Shown piece by piece: positions 27,931 to 48,019 of a DNA stretch of 64,000 bases. The DNA comes from Leptospira sp. (GTDB lineage: Bacteria > Spirochaetota > Leptospiria > Leptospirales > Leptospiraceae). Position 1 is the stretch's first letter. Each line of letters starts with the position of its first letter. The translations under genes and the position numbers were made by a program. The notes beneath the pieces were generated by a model, which saw only the letters and a program-made list of their open reading frames with translations, was not told the DNA's origin and searched no databases. Where the stretch lies: contig JAWXAQ010000022.1 in NCBI GenBank assembly GCA_034439575.1, forward strand, positions 1 to 64,000, written 5' to 3'.

Positions 27931-28338
27931 TTAAGGCAGTAAAAAGTATAAAAGAACCATTCCACCCATTGCCATTTCTGGAAATCGTCGTTCCAAAAAG
28001 GATTTGGGAGCTTCTTCTTTTTTTTCCGTCCCTTGACTAACAGTAGTTTCATGTTGTACAGGTGCTGGACTTGATGAGAATAACTTCTTAAAGAAGCCTG
28101 GTTTCTCTTCTGGCTTTATTTCACCCCAAGTAACTGCTGATGGAACAATTGTAATTTGACTAGTTTTTAATACTTGTTTGGTTCCATCTTTTGCTTCTAT
28201 TGTTGTTTCCGTTGGGCTAGTCGCAGTAGTCTTAACGTCTTCAATATTTGTTTTTGTTTTTTTAATTGTGACTGTGTCCGCCAAAACATTTCCAACGAAG
28301 AGAAAAATTATAAAAATAAATGTTACTAATTTCATCAT
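27931..28338 (-). CDS. Hypothetical exported protein with a C-terminal membrane anchor
   Basis: Signal peptide (VLA-D), Thr/Lys-rich body, hydrophobic C-terminus. Confidence 0.7.
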   Translation of the reverse strand: MMKLVTFIFIIFLFVGNVLADTVTIKKTKTNIEDVKTTATSPTETTIEAKDGTKQVLKTSQITIVPSAVTWGEIKPEEKPGFFKKLFSSSPAPVQHETTVSQGTEKKEEAPKSFLERRFPEMAMGGMVLLYFLLP

Positions 28339-28429
28339 AAATGAAGGGAAAAATTTACCTTGGTAAGTTCCAATGAGTTTCTTATCTTTCTTTGTTACAA
28401 ACTGGTTAAAATGTGAAACTTAAATCCAT

Positions 28430-28457
28430 TTGACACTAGGGTCCGCAATTTTAGCCT
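28430..28457 (+). promoter_or_regulatory. Sigma70 promoter for tRNA-Cys
   Basis: TTGACA-N16-TAGCCT, 16 nt before the tRNA. Confidence 0.6.
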
Positions 28458-28473
28458 ATCCAAAGTCCTATAG

Positions 28474-28547
<74 letters not shown>

Positions 28548-28606
28548 TGAGATTTGTTTTCCCTTGACGTAAGCGGACTTCAAAAAATCATAACCTATAG
28601 CATTTT

Positions 28607-28690
28607 GCCTGGATGGTGGAATTGGTAGACACACAGGACTTAAAATCCTGTGGGAGTAATCCCGTGCGGGTTCGATTCCCGCTCCAGGTA
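28607..28690 (+). tRNA. tRNA-Leu(TAA)
   Basis: GCCTGGA/TCCAGGT acceptor stem, CAGGA-CTTAAAA-TCCTG anticodon arm, long variable arm; CCA not encoded. Confidence 0.97.
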
Positions 28691-28691
28691 T

Positions 28692-28843
28692 GGAACCCTA
28701 ACGACTGCGAGTATCAGAAATGCTAGCGACCCATAGAGAGCGTAAGCATTTCTCTTCGGACAGGATTCCGAAGCAACGAGCAGGACGGGCGAAAACTAAA
28801 AGCCAGCAAGTAAGTTAGTTTGAGCAATTCCCGTTTCAGGAAT
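28692..28843 (+). repeat. tRNA-linked hairpin cassette ending in a degenerate copy of the tRNA-Leu 3' end
   Basis: IRs AGAAATGCT/AGCATTTCT, CTTCGGA/TCCGAAG and AAACTAA/TTAGTTT; 28827-28843 matches 28675-28691 at 14 of 17 positions. Confidence 0.65.
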
Positions 28844-28996
28844 CATTCCAAATGACCGCTTCAGAATTTTCTCTAAATTTTATTCCTTTAACCTAATTCC
28901 CAAAAATCAAAATTCTCGTAACCAGTAGGGATCATCTGCATTTCTCTGCACTCATCCTCTTCGAGTCAATTCCATAATTCGTCCTCTAATGTATTC

Positions 28997-29491
28997 TTGG
29001 GCACCTCGGATGTGTTATATGGACATACATTTAGTTCGCTGACCCGATCCCGCTCTCCGCTTCAATCGTGCAATCCTTGTTCCCATCTCGGGGCTGTCTC
29101 ACCTCCGTGTTCGAATGCCCCGTTACGCCCATCCCTGGGCTTCACCACCGATGGAAACAAGGTTTGCTTGTCCTGGGAAAGTTCGAATACGATAATCTAT
29201 ACTAATACTTTGGGCACCTCGGATATGTTATATGGACATACATTTAGTTCGGTGACTCGATCCCGCTCTCCGCTTCAATCGTGCAAACCTTGTTCCCATC
29301 TCCCTTCCCTCTCACCTCCGTGCTCGAAGGAAGGACTTCGACATCCATGTCTCCGTTACCGATGGAAACAAGGTTTGTTTGTCCTGGGAAAGATCGAATA
29401 CGATAATCTATACTAATACTTTAGGCACCTCGGATGTGTTATATGAAAATACATTTAGTTCGGTGACACGATCCCGCTCTCCGCTTCAATC
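28997..29491. repeat. Tandem array of ~212-bp structured units (two full, one partial)
   Basis: Units start at 28997, 29210 and 29421 (periods 213 and 211); near-identical flanks; internal 18-bp IR enclosing covarying hairpins. Confidence 0.92.
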
Positions 29492-29552
29492 TTTCGCATA
29501 ATGCTCGCTATTTAGATTTTATCACTTTGTGAAAGGATTTCCGCTTCGATCG
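29469..29552. repeat. REP-like palindromic element (CTCCGCTTCAATCTTTCG...GAAAGGATTTCCGCTTCGATC type)
   Basis: CGATC/GATCG outer stem, AATCTTTCGCA/TGTGAAAGGATT inner stem, TCCGCT on both arms. Resembles a dispersed Leptospira repeat as I recall it (not verified). Confidence 0.6.
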
Positions 29553-29665
29553 GTGGTGTGGGGGGAACTGCCAGTCATGAAACAAGAAATTAATTATGTC
29601 ACAAATATTTCTTTCTGTTCGACCAAATCATTCGTGATAGTAGTTTTTTCTAGGCTAAGTTCAGA

Positions 29666-29926
29666 TTAATATCTCATTACTTTTGTTACATATTTTATAA
29701 AAAAATGGAGTATCCCGAATGTTAAAAAAAATACCGGAAAAAAACGAATAAATAAATTTAACAAAAATATAGCTATAGATAATAAATCAGTATTCCCGTC
29801 TCGATTCCAAAATTCCATCGGATTCTGTTCAATTGTAATTAAACAAAATATAATTGAGACTATTATTGAGACAGTGGCAGCCAAATATAGAGGAATTTTG
29901 AATATTTTCCAAAATTTATTTCTCAT
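29666..29926 (-). CDS. Small two-TM membrane protein (possible immunity-type protein)
   Basis: 86 aa, two hydrophobic helices, very AT-rich. Confidence 0.6.
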   Translation of the reverse strand: MRNKFWKIFKIPLYLAATVSIIVSIIFCLITIEQNPMEFWNRDGNTDLLSIAIFLLNLFIRFFPVFFLTFGILHFFIKYVTKVMRY

Positions 29927-29936
29927 TTTCGTTTAT

Positions 29937-30182
29937 TTATTTTGTCCAAGGTTTTTCTTTAATAAGTCTTTCGACAAATACGCAGTAATCTTGTCCATTT
30001 AAATTAGTATTTCCTCCCATATCATTTGCACCTCTTGCTTTTTTCTGCAAAAAAATTGTCTTCTTTTTTGAAGACAGGATAACCCCAGACGCATTCATAC
30101 CATCACTGAAATTCCTAGTCATGGTATTTGCAGCATAGGCAATCCCATCTCGGATTCCATTTGCAAGTTTAGGGGCGAGTAG
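29937..30182 (-). pseudogene. Probable gene remnant (C-terminal fragment)
   Basis: The frame is open 20 codons upstream of the ATG at 30122 (LLAPKLANGIRDGIAYAANT) up to a TGA; no clear RBS; stop is 10 nt before the next gene. Confidence 0.4.
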
Positions 30183-30400
30183 TCATGAATGGTGCCTTTT
30201 ATCATATAAATATTCGTAGGATCAAATTTCCTTATTGACCTAAATCATCTATCAAGTGTTATGCCAATGCAATATTTGACAATAAATTACCATTGGTTAA
30301 AAACCCTTTTCTCATTTTCCCATACTAAAAATCTGTTCAGAATCTCATTTAACATAGGAATTTTTCTTGGCATTAGGAAATAAAAAGATAAAATTAATTT

Positions 30401-31231
30401 ATGAAATTAATTTACCTATTGATTTGTATATCTGTTTTCAATATTCATGCCTCTGAGTTAACAGATGCCATTCGATCAAATGATATATCGAAAGTTAAAA
30501 AATTGATTCAAACCAAAGTGAACTTGGAAGAAGTAGAGGCTGGTATTACCCCCTTAAGTCTTTCTGTAAAAGAAAATAAAAACGAAATCACCAAATTACT
30601 TTTAGAAGCAAACGCAAATCCAAATGTCAGTGATGAAAGATTCATAACACCTTTAATGTTGGCCGCCTGCAATCAAAATAGTGAAATTGTAAAACTCCTT
30701 ATCAAAAACAATGCTGATATTAACGCAAATACTCAGCATGAAACGATGTTAGTCAAAGCAACTCGCTGTAGTAATGCTGAAATCGTCCAGATCCTTTTGG
30801 ATTCAGGCATTGACTATGAAAAAAGAATCCGCACTAAATTGATTTCCCCTAGACCGCTCGTCGAAGCTCTAAAAGCAAAAAAATTTGATATAGCTGATGT
30901 ATTGCTTAATTTTAATTTTGATATAAATGAAGGGAGTTACAATGGAAATTTAAGTCCGCTTTGTTTTTTCTCTCAATATGGTGAAACGGAAGCTGTTTCT
31001 TATCTGATAAAAAAGAAAGCGAATCTAAATCACCTTGCCCAATTGAACTATACACCTTTGATGTTTGCGGCCACAGAAAATCACATTGAAGTTGTTAAAT
31101 TATTAATCGATGCAGGTGCTGATGTAAATATCGTTTCTAAAGATGACAATGAATCAACGGCACTTTCTTTGGCTCGTGAAAAAAAGCATGAAGAAATTAT
31201 TAAACTTTTACTTAATGCCAAAGCAAAATAA
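30401..31231 (+). CDS. Secreted ankyrin-repeat protein
   Basis: Signal peptide; repeated TPL(M)xA...VKLLIxxGADVN. Confidence 0.93.
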   Translation: MKLIYLLICISVFNIHASELTDAIRSNDISKVKKLIQTKVNLEEVEAGITPLSLSVKENKNEITKLLLEANANPNVSDERFITPLMLAACNQNSEIVKLLIKNNADINANTQHETMLVKATRCSNAEIVQILLDSGIDYEKRIRTKLISPRPLVEALKAKKFDIADVLLNFNFDINEGSYNGNLSPLCFFSQYGETEAVSYLIKKKANLNHLAQLNYTPLMFAATENHIEVVKLLIDAGADVNIVSKDDNESTALSLAREKKHEEIIKLLLNAKAK

Positions 31232-31234
31232 GGA

Positions 31235-33109
31235 TCAGTCACAATTTGGATTCAAAGATATGATTGGTAAAATAGCATCCGTTTGGTTAGGAAAAAAATA
31301 ACGAATGCCTAGGTCATAAAATTTAATTTCTGAATCTGCCTTTATGCTTGGAATTGGTACTTGAATCAAATTGTTTCCCGAATTTAATTTTTCTTTAAAT
31401 ACATTGATCACTGTTTCGGAATGGGCTTTAAATTTTTGGTCTTGATCAAAACTATCTCTTTCTCTGAGTTCTATGTCTAAAGAATTTGGGTAATTATCAT
31501 TCACGTCTGTTGGAAGAGATATGTTTAAAAGCAAAGGATTTTCTCTTGGTATTTTATTCCCATTCAAATTTACTTTGTGGCTCAGACATCCTTCCAATTT
31601 AAAATAAAATTCTTTATTCTCCGTTAGGTGAATATTTTGAATATCCCCATTGATTGTTTTTTGTGCAATTGGTGAAAGTAAATTGTTTAGATCTCTAGTT
31701 CTGTGAATAAATAAATCTGATTCTTTGTTTTGAACTAAAGAAGAAATGGAATAGATTGAAATAATCAAAGGTAAGAGTATACATATTAATACAAAAAATT
31801 GAATTGGTTTAGATTTGGCTTTTTTAAGATTCAATCCAACGAGAAAGAGAAAGGTTAAATAAACTTCATCATCTAACAGAAAACATTGAAACATCCCAGC
31901 TATAAAGATGGCATAGATGCCTAAAAAAATTGGTAATTTATGTTTTGAATCGTTTAAATTCGTTATGATTATAAACCAATAATATAGAAAAATTCCAGAA
32001 CCTATGATTCCGCCTAAAATCAAAAAATGAATAAAATCATGATGTGCATGACCTTTGGGTGTAATTAGTATTTCATAATAGAGATAGGGTTTTTTCTCGA
32101 TTTGATCTATATAAGAGGTTTCAAAATATTTTGTATAATTGCCAGAACCTATACCAAATATTCGATTATTTTGAAATATTTCAACATTCGCTTTATGAAT
32201 CCATACCCTTTGGTTTTCTAAAGTTTGTTTCGCAAACAATTGTTCAATGCTCCTTCGAAACAACCAATTTGTTTGAAAAATGACAGCAATCAAAAATATT
32301 AAAATAGTAAATGAGAATATGAGAGTATACTTATGTTTTTTGAAAAGATTTAAACTTGATTTAGGTTTATATAATAATATATATGCGGTGATAAGGCCAA
32401 TCCAGATAGATCGACTCTGGTTCAATAATAAAACAAGTAATCCTAAAATGGAGTATATTCCAAAAATAATTAAAGGAAATTTATTAAATTTTTTAGAATG
32501 TAAATGTAGTCTTAACAATCGATAAAAATGAAACCAAACAGCAGGTAAAAATAAAGCGAGTAAACCCCCATATGTTAGGTGAGTATTTTGGATTCCAATG
32601 GGAAGGTATATCGCTAAATCCCAGAAATCAAGAAAGGCTATTTGATGCGGTAATCTTCTACCAATCAAAAATTGGAATCCATCCATAACGAATGTCGAGA
32701 TTCGATAAGGAAAAAAAATAGAAATACAACCGAAGGTGATAAGTAAGAGAGAAGCGAATTTTAGGTGTGTTTTTAATTTTGTTTTTTGGGCAATGGAAAA
32801 TCCACTAGTGGGAAGTAAAATGAGTAACATCCAAATATCGCCAAATTCCGATTTTAACATCTTCTTCCCGAATGAATATGGACTTTCGCAAGACTGGAAA
32901 GCTGAGGATATAAGGATTAAAATATAAAGACTAAAGCCTACCCAAAAAAGTCTGGGAAAGTCCTTGAAATTTGGTCTCTTGAAAATGAAATAGCAAAGTA
33001 TGGATAGAACGGCAAAAAACTGTGAAAGTGTGACGGAAAGGATCGCCGAATATACATATAGGACGAGCAATAAAAAATCAAAATTTTTAAACGAAATCTT
33101 ACTGCCCAT
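31235..33109 (-). CDS. O-antigen ligase (Wzy_C/WaaL) family membrane protein
   Basis: Multiple TM helices; QSRS, FGIGSGNY and HAHHD motifs. Confidence 0.85.
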   Translation of the reverse strand: MGSKISFKNFDFLLLVLYVYSAILSVTLSQFFAVLSILCYFIFKRPNFKDFPRLFWVGFSLYILILISSAFQSCESPYSFGKKMLKSEFGDIWMLLILLPTSGFSIAQKTKLKTHLKFASLLLITFGCISIFFPYRISTFVMDGFQFLIGRRLPHQIAFLDFWDLAIYLPIGIQNTHLTYGGLLALFLPAVWFHFYRLLRLHLHSKKFNKFPLIIFGIYSILGLLVLLLNQSRSIWIGLITAYILLYKPKSSLNLFKKHKYTLIFSFTILIFLIAVIFQTNWLFRRSIEQLFAKQTLENQRVWIHKANVEIFQNNRIFGIGSGNYTKYFETSYIDQIEKKPYLYYEILITPKGHAHHDFIHFLILGGIIGSGIFLYYWFIIITNLNDSKHKLPIFLGIYAIFIAGMFQCFLLDDEVYLTFLFLVGLNLKKAKSKPIQFFVLICILLPLIISIYSISSLVQNKESDLFIHRTRDLNNLLSPIAQKTINGDIQNIHLTENKEFYFKLEGCLSHKVNLNGNKIPRENPLLLNISLPTDVNDNYPNSLDIELRERDSFDQDQKFKAHSETVINVFKEKLNSGNNLIQVPIPSIKADSEIKFYDLGIRYFFPNQTDAILPIISLNPNCD

Positions 33110-40439: not shown

Positions 40440-40820
40440 ATGAAACATTTTATATTTATTTCCCTTTTGTTTTTTACGAGTGTCGGGTCACTAATCGCTG
40501 AGGATCTTTTGATCCAAGATACCAAAATCGGTAACGGAAAAGAAGCTGCCCGCGGAACAAATGTTACGGTTCATTATACGGGTAAACTTACCAATGGCAA
40601 AATATTTGATTCTTCCTTAGATCGAGGGGAACCATTCCGTTTTGATTTAGGTGCCGGCCAAGTGATTCAAGGTTGGGAAAAAGGAATCGTCGGTATGAAA
40701 GAAGGTGGCAAAAGAAAATTGACCATCCCGCCAAATCTTGGATATGGGAATAGACAAGTAGGACCCATTCCTGCAAATTCCACATTGATATTTGATGTAG
40801 AGTTATTACGCGTAAAATAA
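40440..40820 (+). CDS. FKBP-type peptidyl-prolyl isomerase, exported
   Basis: VHYTG, FDSS, VIQGWE and IPANSTLIFDVEL motifs. Confidence 0.95.
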   Translation: MKHFIFISLLFFTSVGSLIAEDLLIQDTKIGNGKEAARGTNVTVHYTGKLTNGKIFDSSLDRGEPFRFDLGAGQVIQGWEKGIVGMKEGGKRKLTIPPNLGYGNRQVGPIPANSTLIFDVELLRVK

Positions 40821-40823
40821 CAA

Positions 40824-41825
40824 ATGTTTGATCCTATCTCTAAAGGTATAGATGATTTTGGCAATAGCCTTCTCCAAGCCTTGAACAATGTGCAGGGTCT
40901 TTTTGGGAAGGAATTGTCCGTTGCCAATCCAATAAAAGATAATATCTTACAATTGGTTGGAAACACGCCACTCATCCGATTGAATCGAATTGGATCAGAG
41001 TTTTCAGGCATCCATTTTTACCTTAAGGCAGAATTTTTAAATCCTACTGGTTCCGCCAAAGACCGCACAGCGCTTGCTATGTTTATAGACGCAGAGAGGC
41101 GAGGGCGCCTTAAGCGCGGTATGTCAGTGGTACTAATCGGTGCTGGATCTTCGGCGATTAGTTTTACTTGGATTGGAAAAATTAGACAATATCCTGTATT
41201 TTGTTTGGTGCCAATTGGTACCTCCTCAGAAAGGATTCAGGCACTGCGAGGTTATGGAGCCGAGGTAACAGTTGCAAGTAAGTCCGACGAACAATCGTTA
41301 ATGGAATTAGCAAATGTTAAAGCTCAAAAAGTAAATGGATGGATTCCTGATGAATCAGAAAATCCTGCCAATCCAAATTTTCATTTTAAGACTACTGGGC
41401 CTGAAATTTGGAGAGATTTACAAGGGAAAGTGGGAGCCATCGTTTCTGCCCCTGGTACTGGGGGTGCGATCACAGGCATCGGAAGATACTTGAAATCTCA
41501 AAATTCTAAAATCAAAGTAGTCCTTGCCGGAAAGCCAAATTCGTCTTATGTGAATTATGCGAAGGAAAAAGATAAAAAAAAGCAAGAGTCAATTTATCTG
41601 CCACCTGTTTTTGATCCTAAATTGATAGATTATACTTTTCCTATAAGTTCAGAAGAAGCCCTACATTTACAATCTGATCTTTATGAAAAAGAAGGAATAT
41701 TTGCTGGTTTAACAACGGGCACTGTCATCACGGGCGCTCTAAGATACTCGGAAACATTGCAAGAAACAATGGCAAATGAGAGAGAACCTTTTAATATTGT
41801 GATTCTTTCCCCAGATAGAGATTGA
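40824..41825 (+). CDS. PLP-dependent cysteine synthase-like protein (divergent)
   Basis: GNTPLI, NPTGSAKDR, TTGPEIW and GTGG motifs. Confidence 0.85.
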   Translation: MFDPISKGIDDFGNSLLQALNNVQGLFGKELSVANPIKDNILQLVGNTPLIRLNRIGSEFSGIHFYLKAEFLNPTGSAKDRTALAMFIDAERRGRLKRGMSVVLIGAGSSAISFTWIGKIRQYPVFCLVPIGTSSERIQALRGYGAEVTVASKSDEQSLMELANVKAQKVNGWIPDESENPANPNFHFKTTGPEIWRDLQGKVGAIVSAPGTGGAITGIGRYLKSQNSKIKVVLAGKPNSSYVNYAKEKDKKKQESIYLPPVFDPKLIDYTFPISSEEALHLQSDLYEKEGIFAGLTTGTVITGALRYSETLQETMANEREPFNIVILSPDRD

Positions 41826-41830
41826 GATTT

Positions 41831-43690
41831 TTATAATTCCACTAACAAAACAGTAATATCATCTGATATAGGTGAGCGTTTTTTGTTTAAAGAATTTATA
41901 ATCTCAGTTATATAATTTTCTGATGATTTGTTTTTTAGTTCTCGCATTACTTCGATTAGAACTTCGGTAGAAGTGTTTTCTATACTGATATCATCATTTA
42001 ATCCATCCGTATAAAATAAGAGTTTATCACCTTTTTCTAAATTTAAAGTATAAAGATTATAATCTACATGGGTTATAAATCCCAATAGAAATCCTTCTGA
42101 TTCTAAAGGAACAATTTGATCCTTGCGAATCAATATAATCGGCGGATGACCAGCAGTCGCGAAGGTCATTTTCCCATTCTGTAAATCTATATATGAATAT
42201 ACGGCACTCACAAACCTTTGGTCTAGAGTTTCCAATAGAAATTGATTCATATTGGATAGTAATTTGTTTGGTGAATGCATCCATTGTTTCTCATTTCGAA
42301 ATGCAATTTTGACAGTTGATGAGTCCATAGCTGCACTCACTCCGTGACCTGTTACATCGGCGAGTAATATCCCGAGTTTATTCTCATCAAATTCATGGAA
42401 GTCATAAAAATCTCCTCCGACTGCATGTAGCGGAAGATAGGTGACAGAGATTTTGGCATCAAAAACTTTAGGTATATGTAATGGTAAAATTCGATTTTGA
42501 ATTTTTCTTGCTACATCCAAATCTTTTTCGATTAATAAAAGTTTGGCGTTTACTCTTTCTTTTTCTAGAGTAAGACTTTTGATCCTTCGACCAATTGCTA
42601 TTGAGAATAATATCACTTCTAATAGTGAGGAGAGTTGGGTTCCAAATCGCCCAAGCCAGAATTCCATGGGAATATATCCCAAGTTAGTTAAAGTTTCCAG
42701 CAAAACACCAATTGTGACAATGATCCATGCCAGGAGAAAAAATTCAGATTGTTTGACTCCCTTATTGTAACCATAAACCGCACTAATGATCATCAATAAG
42801 GATCCCAATGGTAAAAATACATTCATTGATCGTACCATCAGCCCAAAGTCCAAGAAGGGAGAAATGATAGCCATACCTAATGAAAAGTAGGCGGAATAAC
42901 TTAGGATCTTGGCCCACCTGACATTGAATTTGGAAATTTCCAAAAATTCATTCGTAAATTGTAAAACCGAAAAAATTGTCAGATAAGATACTATAAATAA
43001 TCCAGGTTTTATAAAAAAAGTATGATTTGGTGTAAAGAATTGTTTCAAAAATCCACCTAATATCAAATAAACGAAAAAGACAGATAGAATATAAGAACAA
43101 TAGTATAAAAAACTCCTTTCCCTTATGGAATAATAGATAAATAAATTATAAAATAAGAGTGAGATCATGGCTCCAAAATATAAGCCATGGATGATATATT
43201 CACCTTGCGTTTTGTTGATAAAATCTGTTTCATTCCAGATTCGGAGTGGGGCAGTGAGGAGTCCTGAGTTCGAAAGTTTAAAATAAATATCAGTGATTTC
43301 TTTAGGAGCTAGTTTGATTCGAAAACAGGGATTTCTATGAAAGATTTGGTTATTTTTGGGATTTGAAAATACTCCTGACTTTTCTTTAAAAATTAAATTT
43401 CCATTCGTCACTTGGTAGTATTCTATATGATCCAAATAGGAAACGCCCAATTCTAAAATGAATACCTGCTCTAAGTTAGTTGTATTTTCTAGTTTTGTTT
43501 TGACCCAAAGCGGAGGACGACTCGTTCCAAAATTTTGTATACCTTTTCCCACTTCCACCCAATCATTTTCGAATGTGGAAAGTTTTTCAAATGGGATATC
43601 CATATCTAATATCGATAGGTTCGGTCGATTTATATTTGCATTGCACTGAAATAAAAATAAGGAAATGAAAAGGCTAAATAATAATTTCAT
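41831..43690 (-). CDS. 7TM-DISM sensor fused to a SpoIIE/PP2C phosphatase
   Basis: Extracellular domain, seven TM helices, VGGDFYD, ADVTGHG, YTDG and DDIT motifs. Confidence 0.92.
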   Translation of the reverse strand: MKLLFSLFISLFLFQCNANINRPNLSILDMDIPFEKLSTFENDWVEVGKGIQNFGTSRPPLWVKTKLENTTNLEQVFILELGVSYLDHIEYYQVTNGNLIFKEKSGVFSNPKNNQIFHRNPCFRIKLAPKEITDIYFKLSNSGLLTAPLRIWNETDFINKTQGEYIIHGLYFGAMISLLFYNLFIYYSIRERSFLYYCSYILSVFFVYLILGGFLKQFFTPNHTFFIKPGLFIVSYLTIFSVLQFTNEFLEISKFNVRWAKILSYSAYFSLGMAIISPFLDFGLMVRSMNVFLPLGSLLMIISAVYGYNKGVKQSEFFLLAWIIVTIGVLLETLTNLGYIPMEFWLGRFGTQLSSLLEVILFSIAIGRRIKSLTLEKERVNAKLLLIEKDLDVARKIQNRILPLHIPKVFDAKISVTYLPLHAVGGDFYDFHEFDENKLGILLADVTGHGVSAAMDSSTVKIAFRNEKQWMHSPNKLLSNMNQFLLETLDQRFVSAVYSYIDLQNGKMTFATAGHPPIILIRKDQIVPLESEGFLLGFITHVDYNLYTLNLEKGDKLLFYTDGLNDDISIENTSTEVLIEVMRELKNKSSENYITEIINSLNKKRSPISDDITVLLVEL

Positions 43691-43713
43691 ATCAGGAAAA
43701 GAAAAGTTTTATA

Positions 43714-44760
43714 TTACCATTTTTCCTTTTCTTCTGCAAAACTAAACTGCCTCATAATATTAAATCCCAGACAAAATTCTTTTTTAGTGGTATCAAAATC
43801 GGCACCACGTAGCAGTTGTGTGTGGGCGAGACTTCGCGTATTGGCAACAAAGAATTGAAATACATGGCCACCTGTTTCCAGATCAATTCCTATACCAATG
43901 GGTATAAATTTATGTTTTACTGGTTCATCTAAAATGATGTTTTTAAGTATTACTTCCGTTAAGCTAATTGATCCATTTGTCAAACCTAGATTGATCTGGT
44001 CTGAGCTAAGTTGTGTGATGCTTGTTTGGCTCGTTTTTTGTGATTCAGTGGTATAGTTTTCTCCAAAATAATCTCTTTTGGGTGTGAGGATGGTACTGAA
44101 ACTAAAATCCAAACGATTCGTAATTTTAAATCTGCCACTGATATCTAAACCGACGCGGGCATTGCCTATTTTTTCCTGAGTGAAATTTCTATGAACATAC
44201 ATAGGGGATGCTTGCACAGTAAAAGAGTCGGTCCATTTTCTGGAAATAAGGAGGGAACTTAAATAAGACCTTTTATCCTGATCACTCAAGGTATAAGTGT
44301 TGAGATCTCCATTGAGTTTAGTATCTAATACAGAATTTCCCGTCCAATTACGATTGAAATAATTATACTTATAACTTTGATCCGAAGTTTCTTGGCCAAT
44401 GGCTCCGAAAAAACTAATGGTTAGAGGGAATGAATCTTGCGAGATGATTTTATATTTGGTTCTAAGTTCCCAGGTTTTATCAGCAGATGTTCGTGCTATC
44501 CCCACCATAAGATCATCTGTAATGCCATAATCGAGCGCGAGATGAGTGTTTGCTCCATCATCTAATCCATAAAAATTTTCAAAACCAGATTTCGCATTTC
44601 CAAATCTATGATTGAAACGAAAGACTAAATTTTTTGCGCCAATGTTTTCTGTGCTTGGCATAAAAATAAGGCTAGATCCCATGAAATGTGTGTTTGTTGG
44701 TGTTTGTGCGATCAAAACACAGGGAAAGAATAACAAATTAATAATTCTAAAAATTTTCAT
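43714..44760 (-). CDS. DUF5777-like outer-membrane beta-barrel protein
   Basis: FRFNHRFG, FYGLDDGA, LDYGITD and IDLETGGHVFQ motifs. Confidence 0.8.
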   Translation of the reverse strand: MKIFRIINLLFFPCVLIAQTPTNTHFMGSSLIFMPSTENIGAKNLVFRFNHRFGNAKSGFENFYGLDDGANTHLALDYGITDDLMVGIARTSADKTWELRTKYKIISQDSFPLTISFFGAIGQETSDQSYKYNYFNRNWTGNSVLDTKLNGDLNTYTLSDQDKRSYLSSLLISRKWTDSFTVQASPMYVHRNFTQEKIGNARVGLDISGRFKITNRLDFSFSTILTPKRDYFGENYTTESQKTSQTSITQLSSDQINLGLTNGSISLTEVILKNIILDEPVKHKFIPIGIGIDLETGGHVFQFFVANTRSLAHTQLLRGADFDTTKKEFCLGFNIMRQFSFAEEKEKW

Positions 44761-45293
44761 TCTTTACTCCAAATTAGATTCACCTTAACTTTTATATCTT
44801 GATTTACTTTTAGAAAAACCAATTTAGGGACTTCAATATTATATTCACTCAAACGTATCGTAAAATAAGAAGTTTGTTCAATATCTGCACCTAACTTACT
44901 CAAATTTCCTGTGATTTCAACGTTTTCTTTTTTAACACCGTGCAATTCTAAACTACCTACTGTTTTAACTTCTCCTTCATTTTTAATCTCTAAAACTTTA
45001 CCAATGAATTTTGCCGTCGGGAACTTTTGAATTTCGAAATAATTGTCATGTAAGTGAGATGTTTGTAAGTTGTTGCTTGTGCGAATGGAACCGAGTGTGA
45101 TTTCTATATATATTTCTTTGGTATCTAGATTTAAGGTCCCTTTGACACCTTGGCCATCACCGTAAATAGATTCTAAATCCGTTTCTGATTTGAAAAAAAC
45201 TTTTCCCGATTTGACTTTCCATTCTTTGCTTTCTGCATACAAAGTACTAAAAAAGAAGACTGGAATAAGGATGATAATACGAATCATTTTCAT
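44757..45293 (-). CDS. YceI family (polyisoprenoid/quinone-binding) protein
   Basis: HLHDNYFEIQKFPTAKF, GSLELHGVKK and EYNIEVP motifs; ATGA coupling at 45290-45293. Confidence 0.88.
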   Translation of the reverse strand: MKMIRIIILIPVFFFSTLYAESKEWKVKSGKVFFKSETDLESIYGDGQGVKGTLNLDTKEIYIEITLGSIRTSNNLQTSHLHDNYFEIQKFPTAKFIGKVLEIKNEGEVKTVGSLELHGVKKENVEITGNLSKLGADIEQTSYFTIRLSEYNIEVPKLVFLKVNQDIKVKVNLIWSKE

Positions 45294-45724
45294 GGATTTG
45301 CACCACCTTGGATCCAACAATAGAGTGCTGAATCAATTGTAGAGTTTGAATAAACGGCCATATTCCCTCTAGATTGGATGATATACAAAGTGGAACCAGA
45401 AGCATTGCCTGGACTCGTAAATCCTTTCACCTGTGTGTAGTTACTTGCTTGGTAGCGAGTCGTTCCATCGTGACAACCAGACCTGCCACAACTTGTCTCA
45501 AAACCAGCCGCTTTCAATGTGGAGAATGTGGGAGAAGCTGTTGTGCAATTGGGAGATGCGGAAGATGTTTGGGAATTGGAACTCCTGGTTGTGATGGCAG
45601 AAACCAAAAAAGATTGCCAGGCTATTTCTTTTTCTTTGTCGCTCGCGGATGTATAACTACAGTTAAATGAAAATAAGAAAATAATAAGTGATAATTGGAG
45701 GAGTTTTTGTTTGCGATTTTTCAT
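45290..45724 (-). CDS. Lipoprotein with a CX4CH putative haem-c motif
   Basis: FSFNC lipobox; CGRSGCH, GNMA and YCWIQGGA. Confidence 0.78.
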   Translation of the reverse strand: MKNRKQKLLQLSLIIFLFSFNCSYTSASDKEKEIAWQSFLVSAITTRSSNSQTSSASPNCTTASPTFSTLKAAGFETSCGRSGCHDGTTRYQASNYTQVKGFTSPGNASGSTLYIIQSRGNMAVYSNSTIDSALYCWIQGGANP

Positions 45725-45743
45725 TTGATTCTATTTCGAATTT

Positions 45744-46199
45744 TTATTGTTTAGTCCCACCTAATATCCAACAATAAATCGCTTTATCAATGGATTGTGT
45801 GGTGTGAATTGCCATGGAACCAGTAGACTGAGCTGTGTACAATTTAGAAGTCGTCGGCGATGCACTTTGTGTTTGTGTGAGAACTTCTGAAATTACACTC
45901 GCACGATAGATACTCGCACCAGAACCACCTGTTACATGACAGCCAGAGGCACCGCAAGTAGACTCAAAGCCAGCATCCTTTAACGTGGAGAATGTGGGTG
46001 CTGAAACTTCACAAGTAGGAATTGGAAATTTTCCTGTTTGGCCCGTTGTATTTGTAGTAGAAGTTGCACCCGAAGAACGAGCCAAAACAAGAAGCCCAAG
46101 AAGAGTCTCATCATTTGATTCATCTTTCGGACTTATGAGATCGCATTGAAAACCGAAGAGGATCAAAACTAAAAATAAGTGTTTGTAAAAAAATTGCAC
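45744..46199 (-). CDS. Lipoprotein with a CX4CH putative haem-c motif, paralog of the downstream gene
   Basis: FGFQC lipobox; PTFSTLK.AGFE..CGASGCH, GSMA and YCWILGG. Confidence 0.78.
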   Translation of the reverse strand: MQFFYKHLFLVLILFGFQCDLISPKDESNDETLLGLLVLARSSGATSTTNTTGQTGKFPIPTCEVSAPTFSTLKDAGFESTCGASGCHVTGGSGASIYRASVISEVLTQTQSASPTTSKLYTAQSTGSMAIHTTQSIDKAIYCWILGGTKQ

Positions 46200-46294
46200 T
46201 TTGTAACCTACCTTATGTTTGTAAAATTTGGGATTAAATAAAACTTAAGACACAAAATACTGGTTCAATATTTTCTTAACAAGAAATTTTAATT

Positions 46295-48019
46295 TTAGTT
46301 AGCTGTTCTTTCAAATAATTTCTTGATATCGGGTAGCGAATCTCTTGTTACTTGTTCTCCCAATTTGATAAATTCGCTAGATCGCCAAAATTCAAACCAA
46401 TTGGAATTAGGTAAAATTGGGTTTAGATAAACATCTGCATCTTGGGCTGAATATTTCCCGATCCGGTATTGTAGTGAATAAAGGCTATTGACTATGATAT
46501 CCAAAACATTCAGGTTCAATAATTTGTTCGTTGCCATTTGGTCTTTAGAAGAGGGCATTGAATTCACAGCGATGATTCGCTCGACACCTTCGTGAGTCAA
46601 GGGTGACACAGGCAATGGATTCACTATCCCTCCATCCACATAGATTTTTCCGTTTTCTTGGGCTTGTGGAGAAAAAACACCTGGGATCGAAATACTTGCC
46701 ATAAGTGCGTCTAAAACCTTTCCTTCAGAAAGAACGATTTCTTTTCGATTTGTAATATCACACGTGATCAATCGTAGTTTGATTGGCAATTCTTCGAAGG
46801 TAAGATCACCTAAGTATTTTTCTAATAGATTTCTGACTTGTTTTCCGTGAAGTAATCCTTGGCCTGGAAAAGATAAATCTACTAGTTTGAACATTTTAAA
46901 AATCGAATCGATTTCATTTAACAGAGGTAATATGCCTTTATAACCTAAACCACTGGCCCAAAATGCACCAATCACTGCACCAATACTCGTACCTGAAATG
47001 ATATCAACTGTTAGGCCTTCTTCTTCCATAACCTTCATGATGCCTACTTGTGCCAATCCAAGTGCGGCACCTCCACCAAGGGCAATCCCAACTTGGATGC
47101 CTGAAAGTTCTCTCGCTTTACGGGTGATATGTGTATAGAACTTATTGTCACTTACACTAAAATCAATTTTTGTTTCACAATACATGGTATCATTTGATCT
47201 TTTTTCTTCGGAAAGAAATTCCATGTTCTGAATATCATTTTTATTAAATTCATTACCTACCAAATGATCAATGTTATCTGATTCATCAATCAATGCTTTT
47301 TTCAGATCTATAGGATCTTCTGGAAAAATTTCTAAAAAAATAAAAGAGTGGGTTGGATAATGTCGACCTAAAGTTTCTTTGATTCGATCCAAATCTCTAA
47401 ATCGATACGATTTAACTAAATCTGATTTATATTCATCTGGCATGGAACGCTGGTTAAAGCGGAGGATAATTACTTTTTTACCTGATTCTTTTTCGATTGA
47501 TTCTGCTAATTTAATAGAATAATAATTTGCCGCTAGTTCTGAATTATGGACAAAACAAATGACAGAGTTTTTAAAATACTCTCTGCTTCCTAGAAGTTCA
47601 TTTCGCAGAGTTTTTGTTAACATACGAGAAAAGGTAATGGATAGAAAGGGAATTTTACGAATTAATTCTTGGAATTCTCTTTGGTTTAAAACTAAAAAGC
47701 GGGATTCTGTAAGAGTTCGTACAGAATGAGAATGTTCTTCGCCAGTCAGTAGGGAATGGATGCCAAAGTATTCCCCTTTTTTTAAAATTTGAAGTTCCTC
47801 TTCTTTTGTTTCCCCTTTGGAAGGCAGAAATACGGATACAGAACCCGATAGAATCAAATATAAACTGTGATCTTTTCCGCCTTTTTTATAGAGCAATTCG
47901 TCTCGTTTAGCTTCCACAATTTGAACGGATTCGGCGATCCAAACCAATTCCTTTCTAGATAAACTACGAAATAATGGTAATCCAGAAACTAGGTGAATTT
48001 TGCCTTCGAGGTCTTTCAT
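46295..48019 (-). CDS. cNMP-binding domain plus patatin-like phospholipase (NTE family)
   Basis: N-terminal cNMP domain (GEYFG); GGGAALG, GTSIG and DGG motifs. Confidence 0.92.
   Translation of the reverse strand: MKDLEGKIHLVSGLPLFRSLSRKELVWIAESVQIVEAKRDELLYKKGGKDHSLYLILSGSVSVFLPSKGETKEEELQILKKGEYFGIHSLLTGEEHSHSVRTLTESRFLVLNQREFQELIRKIPFLSITFSRMLTKTLRNELLGSREYFKNSVICFVHNSELAANYYSIKLAESIEKESGKKVIILRFNQRSMPDEYKSDLVKSYRFRDLDRIKETLGRHYPTHSFIFLEIFPEDPIDLKKALIDESDNIDHLVGNEFNKNDIQNMEFLSEEKRSNDTMYCETKIDFSVSDNKFYTHITRKARELSGIQVGIALGGGAALGLAQVGIMKVMEEEGLTVDIISGTSIGAVIGAFWASGLGYKGILPLLNEIDSIFKMFKLVDLSFPGQGLLHGKQVRNLLEKYLGDLTFEELPIKLRLITCDITNRKEIVLSEGKVLDALMASISIPGVFSPQAQENGKIYVDGGIVNPLPVSPLTHEGVERIIAVNSMPSSKDQMATNKLLNLNVLDIIVNSLYSLQYRIGKYSAQDADVYLNPILPNSNWFEFWRSSEFIKLGEQVTRDSLPDIKKLFERTAN

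Follow-up and report, generated by a model that had tools for sequence, protein, structure and literature searches.

What kind of element makes up the short tandem array that begins 305 nt after a tRNA-Leu gene in a Leptospira genome, and why are most of the differences between the cores of its units paired? The array occupies positions 28997-29491 of the window, the 64,000-nucleotide stretch of DNA analysed here, as had been stated in the original prediction, and its orientation is that of the tRNA. The prediction ascribed the paired differences to selection on secondary structure, and offered two identities for the array, an undescribed non-coding RNA family or a REP/BIME-like element with exchangeable cores.

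The repeat structure was established by Tandem Repeats Finder, which reports 29000-29491 as a single array (period 211, 2.3 copies, 87% matches, score 746), and by reading of the sequence, which gives 2.3 head-to-tail units of 211-213 bp spanning 28997-29491, the two complete ones being 213 and 211 nt long. The tandem units that had been described were thus confirmed, and every coordinate given for them was correct. The partial third unit at 29421-29491 is also present, with the correction that it continues into a complete Flavo-1 hairpin (29466-29561, minus strand). As for the folded element formed by the inverted repeat and the core, it was found at 29070-29167 and 29283-29378; it had been assumed to fold on the plus strand, but the minus strand is the better folder. 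Each unit is composed of a flank (module A), the folded element (module B) and a tail, and the features of the region are as follows.

28474-28547, plus strand: tRNA-Cys (gca), by ARAGORN and the Rfam tRNA model (60.7 bits)
28606-28691, plus strand: tRNA-Leu (taa), by ARAGORN and the Rfam tRNA model (61 bits)
28692-31234, no strand assigned: lineage-specific segment of about 2.5 kb, in which the array is accompanied by AT-rich DNA and a gene for an ankyrin-repeat protein, by blastn against orthologous loci and Pfam
28997-29067, minus strand: module A copy 1, a conserved flank ending (in minus-strand sense) in the 3′ arm of the Flavo-1 hairpin, the rest being apparently deleted, by unit alignment, genome blastn and comparison with full A-Flavo-1-B copies
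29070-29167, minus strand: module B copy 1, a predicted three-way junction whose P2 is of subfamily I and whose P3 resembles that of the tRNA-His copy, by covariance model R1 (94.6 bits) and the module table
29168-29209, minus strand: B tail copy 1, with the motif GAAAG(A/T)TCGAATA and an AT-rich end, from the flanks of all copies listed
29210-29280, minus strand: module A copy 2, by unit alignment and genome blastn
29283-29378, minus strand: module B copy 2, of subfamily II, the commonest type in the genome, by R1 (109.8 bits) and identity to copies elsewhere
29379-29420, minus strand: B tail copy 2, from the flanks of all copies listed
29421-29491, minus strand: module A copy 3, running on into the complete Flavo-1 hairpin, by Rfam scan and unit alignment
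29466-29561, minus strand: complete Flavo-1 element (RF01705), by cmscan (55.5 bits, E 6.4e-11, model positions 1-76)
31235-33109, minus strand: Wzy_C-type gene, by Pfam

Besides the tRNAs and Flavo-1, nothing in the region passed the Rfam thresholds, and the weaker matches, such as mir-4716, are attributable to chance. None of the data sets listed as containing the window is recorded as RNA. Contigs from four wastewater runs (X1-X4, probably DNA) cover mostly the tRNAs of the region; one of them covers 29420-29790 with 27 differences.

When units 1 and 2 are aligned, 88 of 92 columns on one side of the core and 59 of 61 on the other are identical, so that the flanks agree at 96%; inside the core the figure is only 33 of 60. 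The paired swaps reported for the core are all there: GGGGC/GCCCC (29090-94/29117-21) in unit 1 against CCTTC/GAAGG (29303-07/29330-34) in unit 2, GT/AC (29122-23/29144-45) against AC/GT (29335-36/29355-56), and GCCC..GGGC in unit 1 corresponding to GAC..GTC in unit 2.

Module B takes the form of a Y-shaped three-way junction of 96-98 nt, in which a basal stem of 18 bp (P1) carries two hairpins, both with GGA in the apical loop. In P2, a stem of 5-9 bp is separated by a small internal loop from the 3 bp that close the terminal loop. P3 has a 2-bp helix at its base, followed by a 3x3 symmetric internal loop (GGA/GGA or GAA/GAA) and by 3-5 bp below the terminal loop. Most subfamily-II copies of this genome have AUGGAU as their P3 loop, but the P2 tip is ACGGAG or CAGGAG, the last Y of AYGGAY not being kept. 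The layout of two hairpins on a basal stem was obtained in the minimum-free-energy folds of all 29 copies of the genome, and the pair counts agree with it. Among these copies, 90.8% of the cells are paired, versus 80.7% in shuffled controls and 36-48% with slid partners, and 18 pairs have undergone double changes. A covariance model and a covariation check had been proposed. On 42 sequences from many genomes, double changes were found in 34 of the 36 pairs, and 86.6% of the cells are paired (62.2% when shuffled, 36-42% when slid; none of 500 shuffles reached any of the observed measures), in an alignment which was fitted to the model and so favours the structure, as is the case for both alignments of this kind (A4 and A6). 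Between species, the stems of B differ completely while the junction bases and both loops are kept, GGA being present in the P3 loop of 39 of 41 sequences, in the P2 tip of 40, and in both for 38. We conclude that selection acts on structure and loop sequence and not on a protein, as originally proposed.

Regarding the strand, G-U cells outnumber A-C cells by 65 to 20 in the copies of this genome and by 112 to 49 in the set of 42 sequences. When the folding energies of the two strands are compared, that of the GGA strand is the lower for all 29 copies of this genome, for 32 of 33 from other genomes, and for 13 of 14 elements at tRNA-His loci. Module B is thereby predicted to fold on the minus strand of the window, the better folder of the two. 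The fold of the whole 581-nt array is unexceptional on either strand (z −1.65 and −1.78).

Is this element proper to the tRNA-Leu locus? The blastn search of unit 1 against its own genome (G000; 4.1 Mb, 37 contigs, 99.98% complete) gave 38 matches, which reveals a dispersed repeat, and nhmmer found 28 full B copies plus remnants. A covariance model (R1), built from an alignment of 29 B copies (A2) on the strand opposite the plus strand of the window, gave 29 strong matches in the genome (E 3e-9 or lower); an element specific to this locus is therefore not what we are dealing with. Of 40 other genomes of the genus, 25 also gave R1 matches; G004 has 29 copies, G044 23, G049 20 and G016 15. A second model (R2) was derived from 42 sequences belonging to many genomes and used to search a sample of the phylum. 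All 4 genomes of the genus matched, and 0 of 146 outside it did (12 of these represent other genera of the family and 134 the other families), under strict filters that let few candidates per genome be scored. In the literature on Leptospira integrons and attC sites, intergenic repeats and miniature inverted repeats, we found no description of the B element.

Relative to the gene upstream, 13 of the 29 copies have the same orientation, 13 the opposite one, and 3 have no neighbour. Relative to each other, B copies less than 6 kb apart are co-oriented in 14 adjacent pairs of the window's genome and opposed in 2. Concerning replication, the two B strands are about evenly split in each half of the near-complete genomes G016 and G049, as judged by eye and with assumed origins, so that little weight can be given to this observation. 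Truncated pieces of B, made of one arm of the basal stem, lie directly beside complete copies at C8:231989-232019, C7:101985-102018 and C35:36677-36694; two of the three reach the same point of P2, which suggests a preferred breakpoint or template switching. At loci L109, L115-L117 and L120-L123, a B subfamily is located about 45 nt 3′ of a conserved terminator-like hairpin with a T-run on the same strand, the whole lying inside a larger repeated unit.

The existence of other copies throws light on the differences between units 1 and 2. At least four stem subfamilies of B were found in the genome, and the types of P2 arm, P2 tip and P3 assort independently among the copies. For instance, in the copy at C11:44915 P2 is of subfamily I and P3 of subfamily II, and the copy at C7:105649 is its converse (subfamily-II P2, subfamily-I P3). 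In the window, unit 1 has a subfamily-I P2 together with a P3 that resembles the tRNA-His copy on C36, and the B module of unit 2 is a standard subfamily-II element, 88-98% identical to copies on other contigs. The idea that compensatory changes were made in place at this locus must therefore be rejected, since the two units carry hairpins of different subfamilies. The differences look "fully compensatory" because the hairpins have been reshuffled by recombination between copies of different subfamilies. Judging from these comparisons, the paired differences are real evidence for the fold; they arose between subfamilies and were joined here by module exchange. More generally, a look-alike of stepwise compensatory evolution can come from the swapping of ready-made hairpin modules between repeat subfamilies. 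The REP/BIME-like mosaic with exchangeable cores is the better of the two descriptions that had been offered.

The other half of the mosaic is related to a known motif. The Flavo-1 match at 29466-29561 covers the full model of RF01705 and passes its gathering score of 42; it is formed by the end of the partial third unit together with unique sequence. Since the complete Flavo-1 starts in the end of the third unit, module A, the first 71 nt of each unit, ends in one arm of a Flavo-1 hairpin. Units 1 and 2, with that single arm, do not match RF01705. Module A has 14 blastn matches in the genome, where Flavo-1 itself has 32 matches (23 above cut-off), and Flavo-1 is multi-copy in 39 of 40 relatives of the genus. 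Complete A-Flavo-1-B units, in which B directly follows the hairpin, were found at C8:232166-232403, C30:65677-65911 and C17:550-897. Compared with them, units 1 and 2 lack about 73-75 nt of the Flavo-1 hairpin, i.e. the apex and one arm, and in a contig from the environmental runs (X1-X4, probably DNA) A is joined to B with 73 extra letters in between. A deletion between direct words is a plausible cause of this loss, as the same short word occurs in both arms of Flavo-1 in direct orientation. To the eye, the internal loops that flank the 2-bp helix at the base of P3 in B (GGA/GAA opposite GGA/GAA, beside a GC step) look like those of Flavo-1, but B itself gives no Flavo-1 match. Flavo-1 was described in Bacteroidetes as a probable RNA whose role is unknown (Weinberg et al. 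2010, PMC2864571, available extract). According to extracts of two further sources, Flavo-1 matches in Flavobacterium psychrophilum are sense or antisense to transcripts without a pattern (PMC9723704), and Flavo-1 is among the unannotated transcribed regions of a Leptospira long-read transcriptome preprint. Module A was also considered by eye as a sigma-54 or sigma-70 promoter, and dropped owing to the misfit of the spacing in the window's copies.

Relatives of B were found next to the tRNA-His genes of the genus. With filters off, R2 gave 30 matches in 22 of 30 tRNA-His loci, 29 of them on the strand antisense to the tRNA, with 2-3 copies about 290-430 nt apart at L201, L208, L213, L214, L215 and L216. 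At three of these sites, the TwoAYGGAY model (RF01731, gathering score 43) matched on the same strand, with 50 bits at L201, 46.5 at L200 and 45.5 at L216. Over the genus, 28 of 40 other genomes have RF01731 matches at E 0.01 or lower, which exceed the cut-off in 5 genomes, and by their coordinates most of these matches adjoin the tRNA-His matches. The Rfam check that had been suggested led to Flavo-1 at the array end. RF01731 is not matched by the window's own copies: there is no match at E≤10 in 28300-29900 or in 20 B copies, nor at E≤1 in the whole genome of the window. Because of this last result, we file B as a putative divergent branch of TwoAYGGAY, reached via intermediates, and not as a member by the family's own threshold. 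The undescribed non-coding RNA family is in any case abandoned, as one module is Flavo-1 and the genus-wide relatives of the other reach the RF01731 threshold.

TwoAYGGAY (clan CL00106) was reported from the human gut, gamma-proteobacteria and Clostridiales as a probable RNA whose role is unknown (Weinberg et al. 2010, PMC2864571, available extract). It has been predicted to bind CsrA and to have tandem G-A pairs in one stem (PMC4333381, extract). In Pseudomonas, it is multi-copy (median 11-23 copies) and flanked by repeats, it occurs in divergent doublets with REP arrays downstream at a fixed position, and a mobile-like expansion as well as a possible sponging of Csr/Rsm were proposed (bioRxiv 10.64898/2026.09.22.753630, extract); the text of this preprint does not mention Leptospira. 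B shares with TwoAYGGAY a basal stem with two hairpins, loops that resemble AYGGAY, G-A-rich internal loops in one arm, a multi-copy nature with very uneven copy number between species, and another class of repeats at a fixed side; both have no known function and both have been proposed as CsrA/Rsm binders. In the P3 arm of B, the symmetric GGA/GGA or GAA/GAA loops flanking the 2-bp helix may be compared, as far as sequence goes, to tandem G-A pairs. The differences are that the basal stem of B is long (18 bp) and lacks the extensions described for Pseudomonas, that its partner repeat is Flavo-1 and not REP, that its neighbouring copies are mostly co-oriented (14 of 16 pairs) instead of forming divergent doublets, and that its host is a Leptospira-group spirochaete, a taxon not named for the motif in the extracts of the cited sources. 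The inverted B doublets of G004, 80-140 nt apart (C3:16775-17049, C6:130189-130511, C11:322-1336), are more like those of Pseudomonas and unlike the co-oriented arrays of the window's genome. What was already known are thus the two motifs, described in 2010; what seems new is a divergent TwoAYGGAY-type variant fused to Flavo-1, so that two motifs whose function has been unknown since then are physically joined here in one repeating unit.

At the tRNA-His locus itself (C36:160294-160387 in this genome; loci L195-L224), the element is found 30-50 nt after the last tRNA of a three-tRNA cluster, and in many species a further outer stem encloses it. Another repeated module, rich in GC, is present 3′ of tRNA-His at L200, L204, L206, L207, L212, L217 and L221-L224, as well as at C11:42590-42690 and C11:46360-46460. 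It comprises a hairpin of type GCAAGACACCTTGC and, on the tRNA strand, a hairpin with a GGA loop, and it comes after a terminator-like hairpin in some species and before B copies on C11.

Taken together, we consider it likely that the array arose by local head-to-tail duplication in a mosaic of structured, non-coding repeats of a mobile-like kind. On the plus strand of the window, the mosaic would usually follow the grammar (B, tail, A, Flavo-1)n. The loss of about 73-75 nt of the Flavo-1 hairpin from units 1 and 2 would have fused the tail of A to B and reduced the period to 211-213 bp. The subfamilies of B are particular to each species, and their hairpins have been reshuffled through recombination among the copies. 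The element would have spread or been amplified like REP, MITE or TwoAYGGAY, by some enzyme. Searching for such an enzyme, we found no match to Y1_Tnp/RAYT (PF01797) in the genome, 99.98% complete, with a control positive in 6 of 14 genomes, and no insertion sequence of the genome that has the basal-stem arm as its end. Apart from 4 B remnants and 2 unrelated sites, the arm (with up to 3 mismatches) does not occur outside B. The B copies show no visible target-site duplication, the right flank always being the conserved tail.

REP/BIME elements of enterobacteria and BOX elements of pneumococci are modular intergenic mosaics of short palindromic units, in which tandem modules vary and subtypes recombine. 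The B array resembles them as a modular intergenic mosaic with variable tandem modules and recombining subtypes. It differs from them in the absence of RAYT and in a far larger, branched unit whose loops and junction bases are kept genus-wide. Inverted pairing of the REPIN type is absent as a rule, as seen above from the orientation of adjacent pairs. The 18-bp basal stem, serving as terminal inverted repeats, is a MITE-like feature; a median of 154 MITEs per genome was reported for the Leptospirales (PMC11602168, extract).

What could the element do? If it is transcribed from the minus strand, its twin GGA loops would dock a CsrA dimer. An RNA from the minus strand of the array, comprising Flavo-1 and two B units, may then act as a decoy of the CsrB/Rsm kind that titrates CsrA, and B copies elsewhere may place host transcripts under CsrA control. 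We regard this as a tentative possibility; predicted CsrA binding is nonetheless our best guess of a function for B, because the twin GGA loops are conserved (in 38 of 41 sequences, while the stems change), csrA is present in the genome, and CsrA binding was predicted for TwoAYGGAY (PMC4333381, extract). The consensus RUACARGGAUGU is given in a paper which also shows that the CsrA of L. biflexa binds a GGA hexaloop of flaB3 (PMC8668096, extract). The P3 loop of the window's genome fits this consensus and the P2 tip resembles the validated flaB3 site. The same extract states that Leptospira is without csrB and csrC, and one "CsrA-like ncRNA" was predicted in L. biflexa (PMC4863578, extract). 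When strict CA(N)GGANG sites are counted, the array ties the genome maximum, with 4 per 500 nt for a mean of 0.12, but the density of the looser A(R)GGA is unremarkable (10 versus a maximum of 17). The cluster of equal rank at C16:82650-83450 was set aside, as it looks like a repeat inside a coding sequence. The CsrB, CsrC and RsmX-Z decoys also consist of repeated hairpins with GGA in the loop, but they are discrete genes with their own promoter and terminator, whereas B is a dispersed repeat of mixed orientation (13 same versus 13 opposite to the upstream gene). Next to the array, a consensus scan found no terminator and only weak promoter-like sites, 8 for 5.7 expected. In addition, its partner Flavo-1 is common in Bacteroidota, and the CsrA family search gave no match in a Bacteroides control genome. 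Going further, TwoAYGGAY and Flavo-1 could form one composite element in the Leptospira group, the TwoAYGGAY module being the missing RNA partner of CsrA, the tRNA-His copy a resident decoy, and the dispersed or tandem copies a means of mobile CsrA control or of decoy dosage; this we think rather unlikely. The decoy idea for TwoAYGGAY would be directly testable in the genetically tractable L. biflexa, if the genus is the saprophytic one and so includes this species; a csrA mutant and purified CsrA exist for it (PMC8668096, extract).

Three other readings compete with a mobile-like structured repeat. B could be a recombination site that works as folded single-stranded DNA, like an integron attC site or the forked hairpin of the CTX phage, for a tyrosine recombinase, clusters of B then being gene-cassette arrays. 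The layout on C11 is what makes one think of it: a gene for a XerA-type recombinase (C11:40691-41608; NF040815, 231 bits for a cut-off of 220) ends 2 nt before a B copy, and beyond it come two antitoxin-plus-PIN pairs as well as further small ORFs, with co-oriented B copies between them all. The imperfect inverted repeats, the variable and sometimes branched centre, the strand-specific fold, and the co-oriented arrays with small accessory genes including toxin-antitoxin pairs are all reminiscent of attC, and the co-orientation of adjacent copies noted above points the same way. So does the enrichment near tRNA genes: 4 of the 29 copies, at the tRNA-Leu, tRNA-His and tRNA-Tyr loci, lie within 1 kb of a tRNA for 0.38 expected, and about 1 in 2000 random placements reach 4. 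Yet this recombinase is below the cut-off for integron integrases (TIGR02249, 162 versus 265 bits, in two pieces that skip positions 179-235), B occurs within 1.5 kb at only 1 of 11 loci of recombinase homologues in relatives, and the L. ainlahdjerensis homologue (60% identity) has no B within 6 kb. Five genomes (G044, G049, G052, G004, G020) have no homologue above 34% identity, and three of them hold 20-29 B copies. The inverted doublets of G004 and the ends of the basal stem, which differ between subfamilies and leave no shared core site, also speak against it. Unlike attC, B comes without an integron-type integrase, without shared RYYYAAC/GTTRRRY ends and without a consistently linked recombinase. 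We regard the recombination site as improbable. All four tRNA-linked copies run with the tRNA, the GGA strand being antisense to it. On its plus strand and within a tRNA primary transcript, B could then be a terminator or a processing barrier for tRNA operons, and the direction is indeed that of the tRNA at the Leu, His and Tyr loci, the three tRNA-linked ones of this genome, and genus-wide in 29 of 30 tRNA-His matches. This role is very improbable to us, considering that in 74 of 76 elements the plus strand is the poorer folder, that no T-run follows the stem, and that 25 of 29 copies are not near a tRNA. As to coding, an open frame of 139 aa (28997-29416, plus strand) does span both units. 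We give practically no credit to a repeat protein, as this ORF has no Pfam match, the unit differences pair in the helix instead of following codon position, and the frame shifts between units because their lengths, 213 and 211 nt, are not multiples of 3. Apart from this comparison, the whole cassette-array-like layout of C11 extends over 40691-47218 (loci L052, L011 and L009), and the contig ends in a 5S rRNA gene.

Coming back to the mosaic repeat at the tRNA-Leu locus, we compared this site between genomes. In G016, G044 and G049, the Wzy_C-type gene comes about 215 nt after tRNA-Leu, versus 2.5 kb in the genome of the window. R1 had no match within 1.5 kb of the same tRNA-Cys/tRNA-Leu locus in 29 other genomes of the genus, and Flavo-1 had none at the tRNA-Leu locus of the 19 relatives scanned. 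By these comparisons, the presence of the array at this locus is lineage-specific. The boundary of the insertion is unreadable, the relatives being about 70% identical in DNA with synteny ending at the element, and when att-like bounds of the 2.5-kb segment were sought, the 3′ end of tRNA-Leu was not found repeated in direct orientation. A 38-nt direct repeat (28718-28755 and 28910-28947, 71% identical) is present in the spacer that separates the array from tRNA-Leu, and the first 150 nt of this spacer are common to G052. Finally, the ankyrin-repeat gene of the 2.5-kb segment is located at 30401-31231 on the plus strand (Pfam Ank_2, E 2e-48).
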